Below, one piece after another: positions 5,424-46,631 of a stretch of 64,000 bases of DNA. Source of the DNA: a virus; the IMG/VR virus record IMGVR_UViG_3300016476_000657, positions 6,583 to 70,582 of that record, one strand, 5' to 3'. A model generated the notes under the pieces. The model searched no databases. It worked only from the letters and a program-made list of their open reading frames with translations, and had not been told where the DNA came from. The position numbers and the translations under genes are program-made. The first letter of the stretch is position 1. The number at the start of each line of letters is the position of its first letter.

Positions 5424-5452
5424 TTGACACACCAAAATAAATATGCTACAAT
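5424..5452 (+). promoter_or_regulatory. Sigma70-type promoter
   Basis: TTGACA-17-TACAAT with TG extension. Confidence 0.7.
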
Positions 5453-9560: not shown

Positions 9561-10092
9561 CTTTTTTGGTGGTGCGGGCGTAGGTAAAAGTACACATGCA
9601 GCTGGCTTATTCTATCATATGAAGAGTCGGGGCTATAATGTAGAACTAATAAACGAATACGCCAAGCAAATGGTTTGGGAAGGTCACAGCGAAGTTATGC
9701 GTGACCAGTTCTACCTAGCGGCCAACCAACACCGTCAAATGATTCGTCTGGATGGTAAAGTTGATTACTGTATCACTGACAGCCCTATGCTGCTAAACAT
9801 TGTTTACCGTGACATGTACGGCGAACCCTTGTACAGTGACACTTTGGACAAACTGGTATTAGAATGCCATCGTCGTTATGAAAATATCAACATAGTAATG
9901 AAAAGGCCTCAAGCTAATTCTTTCAAACAAGAAGGTAGGTTGCAGGACTATATTCAAAGCTGTGTAGTAGACGAGCGCATTGAACGTGTATTAGATAGCA
10001 TAAGCGAAAACTATATCAAAGTTAACTATGAATGGAGCAACAGCATTTTTGATGAGCTCCTAGATTATATTGTAAATTGGCCACGAGAATGA
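9547..10092 (+). CDS. P-loop nucleoside/nucleotide kinase-like (NadR/AAA_28 type)
   Basis: GGAGVGKST Walker A, EYAK, ITDSPMLL motifs. Confidence 0.7.
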   Translation: MKVINFFGGAGVGKSTHAAGLFYHMKSRGYNVELINEYAKQMVWEGHSEVMRDQFYLAANQHRQMIRLDGKVDYCITDSPMLLNIVYRDMYGEPLYSDTLDKLVLECHRRYENINIVMKRPQANSFKQEGRLQDYIQSCVVDERIERVLDSISENYIKVNYEWSNSIFDELLDYIVNWPRE

Positions 10093-11969
10093 GCGACGAA
10101 CAAAACATGAAGCCAAAGCATCTAGATGCTTTTATGGATACAGCATATAAATTTGCTGACCTAAGCACAGCAGTTCGCGCTCAAGTGGGCGCTATCATTG
10201 TGAAAGATCGCCGTATCATCAGCATCGGTTATAATGGTATGCCATCGGGTTGGGACAATAACTGCGAAGATCGCGAATATATGCCGCAGGACGCTGGTGG
10301 TTGGTTGAATCCTGAAGAGATTGAAATGCAATGGCCTTATCAAGATGAACAAGGTCGTTACAAACTTAAAACTAAACCCCAGGTACTTCATGCAGAAGCA
10401 AACGCTATTGCTAAACTAGCACAAAGCCCAGAAAGCGCACGTGACGCTGTACTGTTCTGTACTCACATGCCCTGCATGGAATGCGCTAAACTGATTCATC
10501 AAAGCGGCATCCGCACAGTATACTATGGCGAGCAGTATGTAGCAGCCAAGGGCAGTGGCGAACAGTTTCTAAGCAAGAGCGGCATTAAGCTAGAATGGCT
10601 ACCACCTAAACCTAAGCCAGTTAAGACAGTTGAAAAGATTGTTGAGGTTGAGCGTGTAATTAACGCAGGTATTCCTCTAGCATTTGATAATGGTAAGCTG
10701 CTACCTCCAGATAGTTTCTATAAAATTCTACACCGTAGGGATGAGCGCGGCGAAATTATCACTATCAAGGTGTTTAAGAACATAGCGTTTCTTCATATTA
10801 GTGCAAAATACAATTGGGATATGCTATACAGCGATGTGATGGCTGTTAATAAATTGTTTGATATTACGGATTGGGTAATTGATTACAGCTACGAAGCACA
10901 TATTCTACAAGCAGATAATCAACGCAAGGGTCTTATTTTTGATTTAATTCATCAGAGTATTGCAAAGCTATCGCTTGAAAACTGTAATTGGCATTTAATT
11001 CACGGAAATTATTATGTAGAAAAGCAGTACAACGAATGGTGTAAACATAATAATTATGAGAAAATGTTTGCAACTGTAGACCATTTGCCTACATTATTCT
11101 TCCACAGATATTATAAGACTGCAACAGAACAATACAAGCCAATTGAGTTTAGACAGATTTTCAGCAAAACTCCTGTCAAGCATTACTGCACCTTTAATGG
11201 TCGCGCTGGTTATGATCGTGTAGGGCTATTAAAGTTCTTGCACAGTGAGAATCTATTAGATAAAGGCTACAGCACTTGGCACTTTGATCCTGAAAGCTGG
11301 CAGATCATTTACATCGAAGCGCCAGATATTGCGGCTGAAAATCGTTTGCCTAATGGCGTTGAGCCAGTAAAACATTTTAGTGAAATCTCCACAGCGTGGA
11401 ATTATCAAAGTGAACAAGAGCTAATTGATTGCTATGCTCAAAGCTGCTTTGAGATTGTAATAGAAACTATCACAAACATAGAACAAGAAAGCTATAACTG
11501 GGATATACTGCAAATCGGCCGTATGCCTAATCAGCTAATCACAGATAAAATCCCTGACCCTAACACAGTGTTCCTAACTGAAAAGACCGCAAGGCCGTTG
11601 CTATGGGGCATGCCTTTCTTTCTTAATGCAGGCTATCGCAGCCTAGCAGCCCTACGTGAACTAGGCTTTAAGACATTCAGTGATATCTGGGACGAGAGTT
11701 ATGACGAAATTGCTGATCCTGACAGCAGAGCCGCTTCTATGCATAACTCTATTCGAGCAGTATTAGCATTGCCCTTAGACGAACTTGCACAGCGTATTGC
11801 TGATCACAAAGAAATACTAGTGCATAACCAACAGCATTTTCAGAAATTAGCTAGACTAATTCCTATTCGACTTTGGCTTGAAGCACACAATGCACGACAC
11901 AGCGGACACAGCAAGCGCCGTGTTCTATCGCAGTTTGCAGAACCTAACGCTCATATTAAGATTGATTAA
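10089..11969 (+). CDS. dCMP deaminase fused to a ~440-aa glycosyltransferase-like domain
   Basis: N-terminal GYNGMPSG, HAEANA, PCMEC zinc motifs; C-terminal FEIVIET...FLTEKTARP...LRELGFKTFSDIWDESYD; one continuous reading frame. Confidence 0.75.
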   Translation: MSDEQNMKPKHLDAFMDTAYKFADLSTAVRAQVGAIIVKDRRIISIGYNGMPSGWDNNCEDREYMPQDAGGWLNPEEIEMQWPYQDEQGRYKLKTKPQVLHAEANAIAKLAQSPESARDAVLFCTHMPCMECAKLIHQSGIRTVYYGEQYVAAKGSGEQFLSKSGIKLEWLPPKPKPVKTVEKIVEVERVINAGIPLAFDNGKLLPPDSFYKILHRRDERGEIITIKVFKNIAFLHISAKYNWDMLYSDVMAVNKLFDITDWVIDYSYEAHILQADNQRKGLIFDLIHQSIAKLSLENCNWHLIHGNYYVEKQYNEWCKHNNYEKMFATVDHLPTLFFHRYYKTATEQYKPIEFRQIFSKTPVKHYCTFNGRAGYDRVGLLKFLHSENLLDKGYSTWHFDPESWQIIYIEAPDIAAENRLPNGVEPVKHFSEISTAWNYQSEQELIDCYAQSCFEIVIETITNIEQESYNWDILQIGRMPNQLITDKIPDPNTVFLTEKTARPLLWGMPFFLNAGYRSLAALRELGFKTFSDIWDESYDEIADPDSRAASMHNSIRAVLALPLDELAQRIADHKEILVHNQQHFQKLARLIPIRLWLEAHNARHSGHSKRRVLSQFAEPNAHIKID

Positions 11970-11971
11970 AC

Positions 11972-12583
11972 ATGATTGAGAGCAGAGAAAACTTTTATTG
12001 GGTGGAGCAGCACAACATTAACTTAGTTGAGCTAGAGTCTAGCTGCCGGAAAATTGTAGACTATGCTAACACTAACCTTAAAGGTATTGCTCCGGATCCT
12101 ATGAGGGAAAATAAACTAATCGGCGACACATACAACGGTTATAACTTACTGCTATATCCCTTGCCCGGGATTAGTGCGCTATACAATGCTATTAGAAGCA
12201 GTTGGAGTCAGTTGAATCAAGGTCCTGATTGGTGGATTAAATGTTGGGCAAACGTGTACACTAACAGTCAATATCACAATTGGCATCAGCACAAGACACA
12301 CATTGCAGAGGATTACGACAACTACGAACCACAGTATCCCAGCTATCACGGCATCTTTTGTGTTAGCGGTAATGACACTGTTACCAGCTATCGCAATGAA
12401 TCACGTGTAATTCATATTCCTCAACAGCCTAATCAATTAAGTATTATTCCTAATCGCGACGATTGGTATCATAGAACTTGGCCCTACAAGGGCGAGGTAG
12501 ATCGTGTAACTGTGGCATTTAACATACTGCACGGCACTGAGATTGAACCGTTTAGATACGCTAACCATTGGCTACCACTTTAA
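11972..12583 (+). CDS. 2OG-Fe(II) oxygenase-like protein (TIGR02466-like)
   Basis: WANVY...HNWHQH...YHGIFCV...WYHRTWP...RVTVAFNI. Confidence 0.65.
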   Translation: MIESRENFYWVEQHNINLVELESSCRKIVDYANTNLKGIAPDPMRENKLIGDTYNGYNLLLYPLPGISALYNAIRSSWSQLNQGPDWWIKCWANVYTNSQYHNWHQHKTHIAEDYDNYEPQYPSYHGIFCVSGNDTVTSYRNESRVIHIPQQPNQLSIIPNRDDWYHRTWPYKGEVDRVTVAFNILHGTEIEPFRYANHWLPL

Positions 12584-12601
12584 GCCAGAAAAACATATCT
12601 T

Positions 12602-12616
12602 TGCTGCGTTGCAGCA
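12602..12616. promoter_or_regulatory. Candidate PhaR-type operator (TGCTGC-GTT-GCAGCA palindrome)
   Basis: Contains CTGC-N3-GCAG and TGCGTTGCAGCA; intergenic, upstream of the phasin-like gene. Confidence 0.6.
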
Positions 12617-12622
12617 TAAATA
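12615..12622 (+). promoter_or_regulatory. T4-late-like promoter box CATAAATA overlapping the operator
   Basis: ATAAATA core shared with nine other intergenic boxes. Confidence 0.55.
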
Positions 12623-12675
12623 CAATGTCGCTGAAAAGTCAGGACAAAAACTCTGTCAATACGAGGAGAATACAA

Positions 12676-12780
12676 ATGACACATAATAAGGGTGCGGTTC
12701 TAGTTAGCCGCGCAGGTCACATCGTAGGTCTAAGCTCAATGCTAGCACTTACATGGGCTTTCATTTTTGCAGTACTATAA
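12676..12780 (+). CDS. Small membrane peptide (34 aa)
   Basis: GAGGAG RBS; MTHNKGAVLVSRAGHIVGLSSMLALTWAFIFAVL with hydrophobic C-terminal helix. Confidence 0.6.
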   Translation: MTHNKGAVLVSRAGHIVGLSSMLALTWAFIFAVL

Positions 12781-12813
12781 ACACTAACGTTTCGCTTAAG
12801 GAAAGGAAAACAT

Positions 12814-13071
12814 ATGTTAGCATTTTCAATTAATCGCGCTGTAGAATCAGTGCAGAATCTAAAGAAAAATTGGGTAAACAGCACAGTTTTTGATACTAAA
12901 CTAGCTGAAAGCCTAAACAGTTTTGTGGACACACAAACTGAATATACCAAATCAATGTTTAATAACTTTGAACGCACAGGCATGAGCCTAGCGGGTTATG
13001 CCATTGGCAAAGCACAAGAGGCTGCAAAGACTGTTAGTGACTGGGCTGAAAAGTTTACTCAAAAGAGCTAA
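12814..13071 (+). CDS. Phasin-like amphipathic helical protein
   Basis: AAGGAAAGGA RBS; all-helical composition, LNSFVDTQTEYTKSMF segment resembles phasin-type proteins; PhaR-type box upstream. Confidence 0.5.
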   Translation: MLAFSINRAVESVQNLKKNWVNSTVFDTKLAESLNSFVDTQTEYTKSMFNNFERTGMSLAGYAIGKAQEAAKTVSDWAEKFTQKS

Positions 13072-13073
13072 TA

Positions 13074-13163
13074 ATGGATTTGCACAGCATTGTGGAACGT
13101 CTCGCAGAAATGTTCCCCAGTAGTCACTGGACAAATTTATACACTGCCCTTAACGTAGAATAA
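13074..13163 (+). CDS. Small peptide resembling the N-terminus of DUF3563-type proteins (29 aa)
   Basis: MDLHSIVERLAEMFPSSHWTNLYTALNVE; starts 2 nt after the previous stop. Confidence 0.4.
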   Translation: MDLHSIVERLAEMFPSSHWTNLYTALNVE

Positions 13164-13171
13164 CAAAAGAT

Positions 13172-13206
13172 AACCCCACAGTATAAACACTATGGGGTTT
13201 CTTTTT
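13172..13206. terminator. Intrinsic terminator between convergent units
   Basis: AACCCCACAGT-ATAAAC-ACTATGGGGTT hairpin followed by TCTTTTT, A-run upstream. Confidence 0.75.
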
Positions 13207-13208
13207 GA

Positions 13209-13418
13209 CTAAGCTACGGGCCCTACATAGTCTGCACGTACATACCAATCCGGAGCGTAATCCAAGTTGTTATGCTTCTCATTGTAGTTTAGTGCATAAG
13301 CACGAGCTTCAGCTGCATTATCAAAATACAGTGTATCCCAATGCTTGCTGCCCCATCCCCGTTCATACTCAGTAAGTACGACTTTATATACAGTAGCGGG
13401 AGCATTAACTTGCGGCAT
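13209..13418 (-). CDS. Hypothetical phage protein
   Basis: ATG with GGAAAGGA RBS; EYERGWG motif; own promoter. Confidence 0.65.
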   Translation of the reverse strand: MPQVNAPATVYKVVLTEYERGWGSKHWDTLYFDNAAEARAYALNYNEKHNNLDYAPDWYVRADYVGPVA

Positions 13419-13611: not shown

Positions 13612-13639
13612 TTGACAACATGCCCAAAGATGCTATTAT
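13612..13639 (+). promoter_or_regulatory. Early sigma70-type promoter with TGCCCAAAGATGC spacer
   Basis: TTGACA-16-TATTAT. Confidence 0.7.
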
Positions 13640-13664
13640 CAAACTGTAACAAAGAGGAAGTGTC

Positions 13665-13838
13665 GTGCGTAACCTAGTAATACTAATCCTAATTCCATTG
13701 CTGCTACTGTTGGGCATTGCTGCTAACGTTATGCTGTATAACGAATGTAAGCGTGATGGCTATTCAACGTTTGCTTGCGTTAGTATGCTGCAACGAGGTC
13801 ACTACATTATAGTAGACGCAACAGACAACAAATCATAA
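13665..13838 (+). CDS. Small membrane protein (57 aa)
   Basis: GTG start, AGAGGA RBS, N-terminal hydrophobic helix; not in ORF track. Confidence 0.55.
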   Translation: MRNLVILILIPLLLLLGIAANVMLYNECKRDGYSTFACVSMLQRGHYIIVDATDNKS

Positions 13839-13849
13839 AGGATAACGAT

Positions 13850-14116
13850 ATGTTTCGCATCAACGATAACAAGGGTTTCCAGATCACGTTTGATAACGGA
13901 TATACTGTAAGCGTACAGTTTGGTCCTGGCAACTACGGTACTAACTATAATGCAGACTTTAGAACTAATCTAAACAAGCCACAAATTGCTATTACTGCGG
14001 AAACTGCACTTATAGCAGCTAACGGTGAGTTTATAGAGTATAAGGGCGGTGACGTACAGGGCTATCAAACACCTAATGACGTACTAGAACTGCTTAACTA
14101 CGCTAGTAAGCTGTAG
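13850..14116 (+). CDS. Hypothetical phage protein
   Basis: AGGA RBS; FDNGYTVSVQFGPGNY motif. Confidence 0.65.
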   Translation: MFRINDNKGFQITFDNGYTVSVQFGPGNYGTNYNADFRTNLNKPQIAITAETALIAANGEFIEYKGGDVQGYQTPNDVLELLNYASKL

Positions 14117-14301
14117 GAACTATGTGAGTCATACACTAGCTATAGTAGTAGTATAGTAGAGAATAACGCAGTATATAGTAGTGAAGGGATGTGAAAATAT
14201 TTTCGGAATAATTGGTAAAATTTTCTTTTTGACGCCTTCCTTATAGCTAACCACCACTGTAGACGTCAAAATTGCGCCATTTAACACACCGTATTAACAG
14301 G

Positions 14302-14310
14302 TTATCCACA
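14302..14310 (+). promoter_or_regulatory. Perfect DnaA box TTATCCACA
   Basis: Exact consensus 9-mer inside a 340-bp non-coding stretch. Confidence 0.45.
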
Positions 14311-14376
14311 GCTTAATATTTTCGGGAAAAACCCTCTACTATAGCTCACTGTAGTGCTATACTGTGCGTACACTGC

Positions 14377-14389
14377 TAAGTCATTGATT
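14377..14389. promoter_or_regulatory. IHF consensus site
   Basis: TAAGTCATTGATT = YAA-N4-TTGATW. Confidence 0.55.
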
Positions 14390-14419
14390 CTATTGGGTTA
14401 AACCATGCCCAAAAAGGTC

Positions 14420-14447
14420 TTGACAATGCCCGCAAAGATGCTATTAT
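14420..14447 (+). promoter_or_regulatory. Early sigma70-type promoter with TGCCCGCAAAGATGC spacer
   Basis: TTGACA-16-TATTAT; extra TGCCCAAAAAG just upstream of -35. Confidence 0.7.
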
Positions 14448-14453
14448 ACTAGT

Positions 14454-14663
14454 ATGGATAGAGAAGATTTCATCGAGTACGTGCTGGACTTTTACAGCAC
14501 TAGTAGTGAGCTTTACCCTTGGGTTGCTGCTACACGGGCTGAGGTTCTAGATGCTACACTACAGCTAGAGCGTTGGTACAGTGCTAACAGTGGGGGAACA
14601 CCTTGCTGGGACAGCATTGATCGCGAGCGTGTACGGGACTTTATTCTGGAAAATCGTGGTTGA
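14454..14663 (+). CDS. Hypothetical protein
   Basis: 69-aa ORF directly after promoter. Confidence 0.55.
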   Translation: MDREDFIEYVLDFYSTSSELYPWVAATRAEVLDATLQLERWYSANSGGTPCWDSIDRERVRDFILENRG

Positions 14664-14687
14664 CATTTGGGCAGAACCTGCTATTAT
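14660..14687 (+). promoter_or_regulatory. Early sigma70-type promoter with inverted motif TTTGGGCA in spacer
   Basis: TTGACA-16-TATTAT. Confidence 0.7.
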
Positions 14688-14717
14688 TATAATGTAGGTT
14701 GTGACAGCGAGGACACT

Positions 14718-15170
14718 ATGAAGCTGGTAATTCAGACTCAGTACTGCGAGAACTACGGTGATGAGGATCAGCCCCGTTGGAAGTTCAAGGGTGGCAGTAC
14801 CTACGTAGTAGAGAACATTACCCCTAAGCAGGCTACCCGCATTGAGAGTCAGGGTATTCCCACTCTTACTGAGCTCGTTGAATACTCAAACCCCATGAGC
14901 CGCGAGTATATCATAGACTACGCTGTACGTGAGGATGATGCGGTTGTATGTGAGCCCTGGGAGACCCCTACTGTATGCTCTTACAGTGATGGTGCTTGGC
15001 ATGCCAGTGAGGAAATCCTCAACGATGAATACGGCTACTTGCGAGAGGATATTGGCCGCAAACTAAGTGTTTGGACCATGCTGCCCCAGGGTGAGCGACA
15101 GGATTACACTGTAGAGTACTATGATCGCGAGGGTAAAGTAATGGTGTTAGAGGTCTTGACACCTGCTTAA
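14718..15170 (+). CDS. Hypothetical phage protein
   Basis: GAGG RBS; TQYCENYG...WKFKGGSTY motif. Confidence 0.65.
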   Translation: MKLVIQTQYCENYGDEDQPRWKFKGGSTYVVENITPKQATRIESQGIPTLTELVEYSNPMSREYIIDYAVREDDAVVCEPWETPTVCSYSDGAWHASEEILNDEYGYLREDIGRKLSVWTMLPQGERQDYTVEYYDREGKVMVLEVLTPA

Positions 15171-15183
15171 ATGGTGCTATACT
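15156..15183 (+). promoter_or_regulatory. Early sigma70-type promoter
   Basis: TTGACA-16-TATACT with TGC extension. Confidence 0.7.
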
Positions 15184-15265
15184 AGTAGTATGAGTTAGGG
15201 CATATGCCCCAGGGCTGAAGCTGCTGAGCCCCTCACACAGCGGCACGTTAGATGAGGTATTACAA

Positions 15266-15580
15266 ATGAGTACGAAGACTTTTACAATTGCTGGTTATTC
15301 AAATCTCAATGGTCGTGTCAAGCTGCGTGTAGCAACTGGCACCATTGCGCGCCGAACTGCTGTGCTCAAGAGTGCAGGTCACACTGACATTAACCTTGTA
15401 GAGCTCCCCGAGCCCATGACTCGTGCTGCTGCTACTGAGTATGTGGAGCGGACCTTTGCGGGCGTTGAGCTGTTTAAGAGCAAGGTAGCTGCACCCAAGA
15501 CTGTGGCCAAGGAACTTGAAGTTGAAGTAGAGCTTGAAGCTGCACCTGAGGGTGTGTTTGCAGACGTAGCCGAGGCCTAA
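15266..15580 (+). CDS. Hypothetical phage protein
   Basis: GAGGT RBS; AGYSNLNGRVKLRVA...GHTDINLVELPEPMT. Confidence 0.7.
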   Translation: MSTKTFTIAGYSNLNGRVKLRVATGTIARRTAVLKSAGHTDINLVELPEPMTRAAATEYVERTFAGVELFKSKVAAPKTVAKELEVEVELEAAPEGVFADVAEA

Positions 15581-15637
15581 TAGCAGCGCACAGGGTGGGG
15601 GACACTGTTCCCCTAACCCCTAATATAGTGTAGGACC

Positions 15638-15820
15638 ATGAAGAAGCCAAAGATTCCTCCCGGGACTCATCGCGAATTGTGGGATCAGGATAGCCCATTT
15701 CGCTATAATCGAGTGGAACAACAGCGTGATCGGGACCGGCGTGAAACCAAATACCGCAAGCGCCCCGATGAATATCTAGAAGATGACGACTGGGAATGGG
15801 ACGACGATTGGGGATCATGA
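15638..15820 (+). CDS. Small basic/acidic hypothetical protein
   Basis: AGGA RBS, 60 aa. Confidence 0.5.
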   Translation: MKKPKIPPGTHRELWDQDSPFRYNRVEQQRDRDRRETKYRKRPDEYLEDDDWEWDDDWGS

Positions 15821-15833
15821 TGCCCAAAAGTGG

Positions 15834-15861
15834 TTGACACCCTGCCCAAAGATGCTATTAT
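15834..15861 (+). promoter_or_regulatory. Early sigma70-type promoter with TGCCCAAAGATGC spacer
   Basis: TTGACA-16-TATTAT; extra TGCCCAAAAG upstream of -35. Confidence 0.7.
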
Positions 15862-18392: not shown

Positions 18393-19319
18393 ATGAAGTT
18401 CTACTCCAGTGACACTGACTACGATGAATATTTGCATGGTTTGCTGAATAACCATTTACCTGAACTGTATAATGTAGGGGTTGGGCCCGAATATCAAGAA
18501 CACACTGACTTAACACTGAGCAGTGCTGTAGCTGAAAGTGTTTGGCACAACAGTACTGTATTTGGCGTTACCACTCCTGATGCAGCGTATCCTGTGCGAG
18601 TTGAATGGACAGGTTGTGACAATGCTGAAACTTATCGTCGACATCTAGACAGTCCTGATCATCGCGAGCTGTTAGCACAGAATGGGTGGATTGATCGCGA
18701 AGTAGTATATGAAATCAACAGTGAAGGTTGGCGCAGTGCAAATTGTCGCGAGTACGACATAGCTGAACCCAGCTTGGTTGTGTTGGGCTGTAGTTTTACT
18801 TATGGCACTGGACTTAATCTAGAACAAACTTGGGGAGCCAAGCTGGCTCAACGTATGGGACTTACTTTGGTTAATCTTGGCATGCCCGGACACAGTTTAG
18901 ACCTTAGCACCGCTTGGCTGATGTTGAATCAACATCGTTTACAACAACCACGTGCTGTGATCATATGCGAAACACCTCCTGCTCGTATGAGTTGGTTAAC
19001 TACAGTTGCTCATGCGAGAACCGCAGTGTATACCTATCCACTGTTTACACTGGTAACAGAGCACAGCAGCCGGGAACCACAAGATATAGCTAGACATCAT
19101 TGGATAATTAATAATCTAAAACTCAACAGTGCGGTTTCTTATTTTAAAAATCGCAAGCTGGTTGAGTATTGGGCTAAGAGTAAAAACATACCCTTTGTGC
19201 ATTTCAATGCTCTTAGTGTAGGCTCTAACACTTATGCTCGTGACCTAGCACACTTTGGTGAGGATTGGCACGACACTGTTGCTCTTGGTGTAGAATCATA
19301 TCTATCAGAAAATACTTGA
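18393..19319 (+). CDS. SGNH/GDSL hydrolase-like protein
   Basis: LGCSFTYG (block I), VNLGMPGHS (block II), DLAHFG (DxxH). Confidence 0.65.
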   Translation: MKFYSSDTDYDEYLHGLLNNHLPELYNVGVGPEYQEHTDLTLSSAVAESVWHNSTVFGVTTPDAAYPVRVEWTGCDNAETYRRHLDSPDHRELLAQNGWIDREVVYEINSEGWRSANCREYDIAEPSLVVLGCSFTYGTGLNLEQTWGAKLAQRMGLTLVNLGMPGHSLDLSTAWLMLNQHRLQQPRAVIICETPPARMSWLTTVAHARTAVYTYPLFTLVTEHSSREPQDIARHHWIINNLKLNSAVSYFKNRKLVEYWAKSKNIPFVHFNALSVGSNTYARDLAHFGEDWHDTVALGVESYLSENT

Positions 19320-45812: not shown

Positions 45813-46631
45813 ATGGACTATTATCAAATACTAGGCGTAAATAGAAATTCCTCACCAGAAGAATTAAAACAAGCCTATAGAAAACTTGCAATGCAACATC
45901 ACCCCGATCGGGGTGGTGATGAAAACGAGTTTAAGAAAATCAGCGAAGCATACGATGTTCTCAGCAACCCTGAGAAGAAAGCATCATATGATAATCCAAG
46001 ACAAGCATACGGTGATTGGCGCGGCCCATTTGATCCAGGTGAACCTTTTGACTTTGAAGATATACTTCGGCAAGCTAGATCAGCATTCCACGAAAATCGA
46101 CGACAGGCCCGAAACCCTGATGCAATAACTGATGTTAATGTAAGCCTTAGTCAGGTCTTCACTGGCACTGATATGTTAGTTGATGTTGGTTATACTAGAG
46201 AAGTAATTTATATCAACCCAGGTGTTAAGAACGGCACTAAGTTAAGGTTAAAAGGAAAAGGGCCTAGTCGTTATAAAGATATGCTGCCCGGAGATCTCAT
46301 TGTTCGTGTAAATGTTGAACTACCACATAACACAGCAATTGACGGAAATCATTTTTTTGTTAAAATAGATGTTAATGCGTTGTCTGCAATTGTAGGCACT
46401 ACAATAGATTACCGACATCCAACAGGATCTGATTTAAAAATTACAGTACCCCCAGGAACACAGAATAATACTAAACTAAGATTACGTGGGTTAGGTGTAC
46501 CTGATTCTAATACACGGCAAAATGGAGATATGTTTGTCATAGTTAATGTTTTTATACCAAATGTAACAGATCCTACACACATTGAAGAATTAAATAAAAT
46601 TATTAAGGCAGGTAAATTTAATGAGCAATAA
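45813..46631 (+). CDS. DnaJ/CbpA-type co-chaperone (no zinc finger)
   Basis: J domain with HPD (HHPDRGG), C-terminal GKG...PGDL and GDMFV. Confidence 0.9.
   Translation: MDYYQILGVNRNSSPEELKQAYRKLAMQHHPDRGGDENEFKKISEAYDVLSNPEKKASYDNPRQAYGDWRGPFDPGEPFDFEDILRQARSAFHENRRQARNPDAITDVNVSLSQVFTGTDMLVDVGYTREVIYINPGVKNGTKLRLKGKGPSRYKDMLPGDLIVRVNVELPHNTAIDGNHFFVKIDVNALSAIVGTTIDYRHPTGSDLKITVPPGTQNNTKLRLRGLGVPDSNTRQNGDMFVIVNVFIPNVTDPTHIEELNKIIKAGKFNEQ

Follow-up and report, generated by a model that had tools for sequence, protein, structure and literature searches.

The locus described here is a row of small features in an uncultured phage genome: a 6-3-6 palindrome that abuts a -10-like stretch and is followed by open reading frames (ORFs) of 34, 85 and 29 residues and by a terminator (Table 1). 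The whole stretch of DNA that was analysed, hereafter the window, comprises 64 kb out of a 71.8-kb IMG/VR contig, and its source is an uncultured freshwater/estuarine jumbo phage. Since CheckV estimates this 71.8-kb contig to be only 19% complete, a jumbo phage is implied. A ClpA-like protein encoded in the window is 48% identical to its counterparts in PA5oct-type Pseudomonas jumbo phages, and freshwater and estuary metagenomes contain DNA near-identical to the window.

Table 1. Features of the locus, with positions in the 64-kb window
Feature	Position	Strand	Basis or detail
6-3-6 palindrome TGCTGC-GTT-GCAGCA, candidate PhaR operator	12602-12616		12-mer TGCGTTGCAGCA at 12605-12616
-10-like stretch CATAAATA (12615-12622) overlapping TACAAT (12621-12626), abutting the operator	12615-12626	+	Invariance
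5'-proximal RNA hairpin TGTC-G-CTGA AAAG TCAG-GACA	12626-12646	+	dG -7.8 kcal/mol, z -4.3
34-aa peptide, RBS GAGGAG at 12663-12668	12676-12780	+	Hydrophobic C-terminal 19 residues
Conserved TCGCTTAA element and RBS GGAAAGGA before the 85-aa gene	12792-12807	+	Recurrence
85-aa two-helix amphipathic protein of a phage family distantly like Phasin_2	12814-13071	+	HMM, hhalign, AlphaFold2
29-aa ORF	13074-13163	+	Common only to L002
Bidirectional intrinsic terminator between convergent genes	13172-13206	Both	Stem-loop 13172-13199, dG -13.6

The limits of this row are clear on one side only. Downstream, the terminator reported in a preliminary description of this DNA is indeed present, as a strong stem-loop with T-runs on both strands. 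Upstream lies a 2OG-oxygenase-like gene ending at 12583, and no terminator was found between that end and the palindrome. A contig from an RNA library covers 12565-12789, across the palindrome, which would fit read-through from upstream, this comparison having used contigs only, which yield neither start sites nor expression levels. The missing terminator and the RNA-library contig together indicate that the unit is uninsulated on its 5' side, and its portrayal as self-contained has to be given up. The 34-aa ORF with its hydrophobic C terminus was found as a membrane peptide had been described; it is kept in three close relatives (loci L002, L003 and L006 in our numbering) and missing from distant loci, being restricted to the window's clade. 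The 29-aa ORF is possibly translationally coupled and is replaced by a terminator in L003 and L006; it has no Pfam match at E<=1, which leaves its supposed likeness to DUF3563 without a basis. In most loci the family gene is preceded by the conserved element, in full (AAAC)TCGCTTAA, ahead of its ribosome-binding site, the order being AAACTCGCTTAA and then AAGGAG.

Several features of the surroundings vary between relatives. In a closely related strain, 908 other bases take the place of the segment at 12800-13219 of the window, between flanks that match on both sides; what is replaced is the 85-aa gene together with the 29-aa ORF and the terminator. The cassette is a variable spot. The phasin-like gene repeatedly has as its neighbour the gene of a small EF-hand-like protein whose N terminus is hydrophobic. 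This neighbour precedes the family gene in L024-L028, L036-L039, L067, L069 and L085, occurs also in L093 (2-196, minus strand), and in L006 (4690-4935) separates the operator from the gene of the 34-aa peptide. A dCMP-deaminase neighbourhood is common to L002, L003, L006 and the window. The deaminase (window 10077-11969; L006 2799-4604) is fused to a C-terminal domain of ~440 aa that has no Pfam match, and this 601-aa fusion, upstream of the phasin-like gene, is kept in the related contig L006; at the same position, L003 has a stand-alone deaminase of 134 aa instead.

The 85-aa protein belongs to a family that is widespread in uncultured phages, many of its members being encoded on contigs of 200-350 kb. 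An exhaustive HMMER search of a library of 1.8 billion proteins recovered 31 relatives, and a pattern scan found a member in 254 IMG/VR contigs, several of them 200-350 kb long. The family is recognised by the signature VQxxKKxFV...LNxFVDxQTEYTK. A word-indexed protein search with the 85-aa protein returned only the protein itself, and an apparent match to a 4066-aa tail-fibre protein was rejected, being a sum of weak repeat matches that lack the hallmark residues of the family. AlphaFold2 predicts a two-helix hairpin with helices at residues 2-24 and 28-84 (pLDDT 91.8), and the maximum hydrophobic moment of 0.55 is reached by 2.4% of shuffled sequences. The protein is therefore all-helical and amphipathic, as Phasin_2 proteins are, a feature that is unspecific to phasins. 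Foldseek searches of the PDB and of AFDB clusters returned generic helical hairpins only and are uninformative for such a fold, and a profile search of PDB sequences likewise gave generic helices only.

Likeness to bacterial phasins, which form the coat of PHB carbon-storage granules, emerges at the level of the family. The window protein has no match in Pfam at E<=1, but when 69 members were scanned, 26 matched Phasin_2 (PF09361; best E 4.8e-5), the next family being matched by four. The register is mostly constant, residues 12-70 of the protein aligning with profile positions 34-94, and in a six-frame search of the entire phage genomes G003 and G004, Phasin_2 matched best at the gene of the 85-aa family. 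None of the members reaches the Phasin_2 gathering threshold of 24.9 bits, the best relative seen individually scoring 22.5 bits. Aligned by hhalign with 13 short bacterial phasins, the phage alignment scored 29.9 (E 1.3e-4), with a probability of only 54%, and all 81 controls scored lower (15.7 for the reversed alignment, at most 18.1 for 40 column shuffles and at most 26.5 for 40 block shuffles). A hidden Markov model (HMM) built from the phage proteins only assigned 12-25 bits to 16 true phasins, and none of the reversed or shuffled decoys exceeded 9.9 bits; in the other direction, the window protein scored 15.3 bits with a phasin HMM, all decoys staying below 15. No similarity to Polynucleobacter phasins was detected by hhalign, and the Atlas yielded a single sub-threshold phasin cluster (0.89), which is a lead only. 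The phasin likeness of the family thus appears consistent, though it lies below curated thresholds, and the family is probably a remote, shortened relative of Phasin_2 rather than a demonstrated member.

The second line of evidence concerns the palindrome. Genes for phasins (phaP) are under PhaR/AniA repression also in Paracoccus, Rhodobacter and Cupriavidus. Footprinting of PhaR from Bradyrhizobium diazoefficiens gave the consensus TGCRNYGCASMA (PMC6201568), in agreement with the preliminary description, and the PhaR palindrome of Sinorhizobium meliloti, YGCRNYGCR, adjoins the -35 (PMC12542648). The window palindrome is present where it had been placed, its 12-mer TGCGTTGCAGCA matches the first of these and the palindrome also fits the second. 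As a positive control, 30 true Phasin_2 genes were collected from 150 Pseudomonadota genomes, and such boxes were found at 22 of them, flanking TTGAC and abutting the -10. One bacterial box (TTGCTGCGTTGCA, L100) equals the window sequence over 13 nt, and in bacterial phasin promoters the second PhaR box stands directly against the -10, as in L126 (TGCGTTGCACATAAAG). With a matrix built solely from 39 boxes upstream of bacterial phasin genes, the palindrome is the top match in the window at 17.7 bits. Because 2 of 30 shuffled windows attain the same score, the palindrome within the window alone is statistically not significant. Shuffles give 0.80 chance sites for the 12-mer, close to the 0.5 per window estimated earlier, and the accompanying caution that the weight lies in position was sound: the palindrome alone means little, and position and conservation must carry it. 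The matrix finds two more sites in the window, at 18728-18744 and 45883-45899 (16.3 and 14.5 bits), both inside ORFs and probably chance matches; the latter lies ~70 nt into the ORF at 45813-46631, just after a consensus promoter. The second TGC-N3-GCA core proposed within the 29-aa ORF (13081-13089, TGCACAGCA) fails the consensus and is a chance occurrence, as it scores only 1.2 bits.

Conservation of the palindrome upstream of homologs in other phages, on which the earlier proposal could be judged, was found even where the proteins are only 30-40% identical. L002, L003 and L006 all keep the pattern TTTG(C/T)TGC-NNN-GCAGCATAAATA and differ in the 3-nt spacer and in the flanks. In distant homologs, tTTGTTGC-aNN-GCArCATAA precedes the start codon by 50-100 nt, and the box overlaps the -35 of a (TGn)TATAAT promoter. 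Fixed arms next to a spacer and flanks that have diverged, at 30-40% protein identity, indicate purifying selection. Some phage boxes are letter-identical to sites listed for B. diazoefficiens, namely TGCACCGCAGCA (L002, L006 and L081), TGCAGTGCAGCA (L012) and TGCATTGCAACA (L009 and L011). Across 57 non-redundant loci, the density of the consensus 12-mer is 0.76 per kb upstream of the gene versus 0.008 per kb elsewhere, and in 24 of the 57 the best matrix match of the ~8-kb locus lies upstream of the family gene at a distance of no more than 500 nt, with a chance expectation of ~4. In the 343-kb genome G001, which is 99% complete, the box upstream of the family gene is the best-scoring site of the genome, a score that shuffled 343-kb sequences, like shuffled 64-kb ones, sometimes attain. 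The box is absent from about half of the loci of the family, and in the G003 and G004 genomes other partial matches to it precede unrelated genes. Taken as sequence, the phage operator is indistinguishable from the boxes before real phasin genes and is conserved at the 85-aa family gene.

The promoter next to this candidate operator calls for a different reading from the one first given. The box overlapping the palindrome, CATAAATA, is there and is unchanged across four close loci, but its assignment as late-type did not hold up. It is an 8-mer one position off the T4-type late promoter TATAAATA; unlike such a promoter, the YATAAATA motif is rarer than chance in the 64-kb window (3 seen versus 9.5 expected), and the contexts of the other two occurrences share nothing with this site. 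A T4-type promoter before late genes was rejected on these grounds. By analogy with bacterial phasin promoters, CATAAATA looks more like a -10 abutting a PhaR box. The placement of the box relative to the -35 and -10 is not the same everywhere, overlapping the -35 of a TGnTATAAT promoter in distant loci and abutting CATAAATA/TACAAT in the window, where the -35 is poor, with no good match. Elsewhere the window has a family of strong, sigma-70-type promoters of the form TTGACA-N16/17-(TGC)TATTAT/TATAAT, nearly all on the plus strand (at 13612-15861 and also, for example, at 5424, 21498, 23262, 45778 and 60010), which are likely phage early promoters; none of this type stands in front of the phasin-like unit. 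Just behind the -10-like stretch lies the 5'-proximal RNA hairpin. Close relatives have equivalent 5' hairpins with different stems, and in distant loci the helix covaries, with 88% of cells paired, 23 double changes versus 7.1 expected and none of 500 shuffles as good, figures that refer to a hand-specified helix, RNAalifold alone having recovered only 3 pairs. Such a covarying helix fits an mRNA stabiliser at the 5' terminus, with transcription starting shortly after the box. A search of Rfam gave nothing meaningful.

What the phages themselves encode bears on whose regulator might act here. No PhaR is encoded in the phage records searched, and any regulator acting at this locus would therefore have to be supplied by the host, unless an unrecognised one is among the phage genes. 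PHB enzymes are likewise missing from five related phage records, PhaC and PhaZ among them. The sole match to the family in a bacterial genome is on L093, a 2.5-kb contig of a Polynucleobacter genome bin. Among the genes of this bin is a phaR with the matching box TGCGCTGCAGCA; the only match to the strict box in the bin is intragenic, and neither of its two phasin genes shows the box. L093 was rejected as a guide to the host, since it is a mis-binned phage fragment whose DctP-like gene, next to the family gene, belongs to uncultured Caudovirales. Solute-binding proteins of the TRAP-transporter DctP type (L093 760-1851; P0208) are common in uncultured Caudovirales, including on contigs of >300 kb.

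The reading that we prefer, to which we assign a probability of roughly 0.5, is that the 85-aa gene is a phage phasin gated by PhaR. It would be a shortened, phage-adapted relative of Phasin_2 whose promoter carries one operator for the PhaR of the host. As long as the host contains no PHB, the palindrome, which abuts or overlaps the -10/-35 region, would be occupied by free PhaR and the gene kept off; once PHB granules are present, PhaR would be drawn onto the polymer and the promoter would open. The phage protein, accompanied in the window's clade by the 34-aa hydrophobic peptide, would then be made and would coat or remodel the granule surface. Binding of PhaR to the operator and binding of the 85-aa protein to granules are both predicted from likeness to the bacterial counterparts, and the effect on the reserve might be to mobilise it, to protect it or to displace granule proteins of the host. 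A little more tentatively, the same may hold for the family at large, such that widespread aquatic phages, many of 200-350 kb, encode miniature phasins with a borrowed PhaR operator, with which they would sense PHB and then remodel the granule. Of the original idea that the phage is wired to the PHB sensor of its host, the phasin likeness and the PhaR-type box have gained independent support, but the late promoter, the DUF3563 peptide, the second box and the insulation of the unit have not survived.

Other explanations share part of this evidence. The palindrome could be the operator of a different dimeric regulator, from the phage or another host factor, and the 85-aa protein a generic two-helix protein unrelated to PHB, both likenesses being coincidence or convergence. 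That every phasin score lies below curated thresholds, that fold searches return generic helical hairpins only and that shuffled 64-kb and 343-kb sequences sometimes equal the matrix score would all be expected under this explanation. We nonetheless consider it unlikely, because two independent likenesses indicate one and the same pathway, because a matrix derived from bacterial phasin promoters alone picks the site in 24 of 57 loci, and because the decoy controls cleanly separate true phasins. A quite improbable explanation is that the phage acquired gene and promoter as one intact unit from a bacterial phaP locus and that the operator is a non-functional leftover; the layout does copy that of bacterial phasin promoters and the box has been lost in half of the family, yet purifying selection, as indicated by arms that stay constant where spacer and flanks diverge at 30-40% protein identity, is at odds with a relic.

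It would be very surprising if the palindrome worked instead at the RNA level, as a hairpin that stabilises, marks for processing or weakly terminates a transcript reading through from the upstream 2OG-oxygenase-like gene. It folds at -8.0 kcal/mol, a C-to-T change in one arm would preserve a G-U pair, and 12565-12789 is covered by the RNA-library contig. Against this, no T-run follows the palindrome, the z-score is a modest -2.7, and distant loci keep only the 3-bp TGC/GCA core, which is too short for a helix; moreover, the element in those loci is upstream of the TGnTATAAT -10 and so would not be transcribed from that promoter.

If the 85-aa gene is a PhaR-gated phage phasin, its parts are known in kind from PhaR-repressed bacterial phasin genes and from phage auxiliary genes placed under host nutrient regulators. 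With the phaP/PhaR systems of B. diazoefficiens (PMC6201568) and S. meliloti (PMC12542648) the phage locus shares the type of operator, TGCRNYGCASMA or YGCRNYGCR, which appears to lie at or adjoining the -35/-10. It also resembles bacterial phaP in its small amphipathic helical product with Phasin_2-like motifs (KKxF..., QxxYxKxxxE/N). Differences are that the gene is phage-encoded and has one box, where two, on either side of the -35, are common in bacterial genes; that the phage protein has 70-95 residues and stays below the Pfam threshold, whereas bacterial phasins have 110-200; that the window's clade would co-transcribe a 34-aa hydrophobic peptide; and that no phaR, phaC or phaZ is nearby. 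Among phages, the closest parallel is offered by cyanophages, in which auxiliary genes are placed under host nutrient regulators, pstS and phoA with Pho boxes responding to the host PhoBR and, in T4-like cyanophages, genes with NtcA sites. There too, a metabolic helper gene of a lytic phage follows the physiology of the host through a host transcription factor. Unlike in the cyanophages, the signal here would be stored carbon, with PHB granules titrating a repressor, rather than phosphate or nitrogen starvation, and the product would be a structural granule protein rather than a transporter or an enzyme.

We found no relevant paper on phage phasins, literature searches matching mostly the word "phasing". 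GenBank phages, searched at the DNA and protein levels, gave no matches to the locus, to the 85-aa protein, to its relative L062 or to a true short phasin, and none of them was found to carry either the 85-aa family or a true phasin. If the preferred reading is true, the 85-aa family would provide the first granule protein encoded by a virus, and its gene would be the first in a phage to be controlled by a sensor of carbon storage. The wiring of phage auxiliary genes to host regulators would then cover stored carbon in addition to phosphate and nitrogen starvation, and PHB granules would be added to the host structures under phage manipulation. In freshwater, soil, wastewater and symbiotic Proteobacteria, PHB serves as a major reserve of carbon and redox equivalents, and phages that control it would therefore affect the flow of carbon in infected cells and matter for PHA bioprocesses. 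With 254 viral contigs, the family is common; it is also small and easily testable, and the operator could serve as a sequence marker for predicting PhaR in the hosts of uncultured phages.

Two relatives have further gene content of note. In a related jumbo phage (L089, G004:C1:97260-100278) there are a malonyl-CoA decarboxylase-like protein (PF05292, E 2e-28), a DUF3579 protein and a 51-aa ORF preceded by a consensus promoter with a partial box. The 343-kb relative G001 (L140-L141) carries at ~188959-208566 a cluster of 32 tRNA genes, one of them with the anticodon CTA; this tRNA would read UAG and is possibly an amber suppressor.
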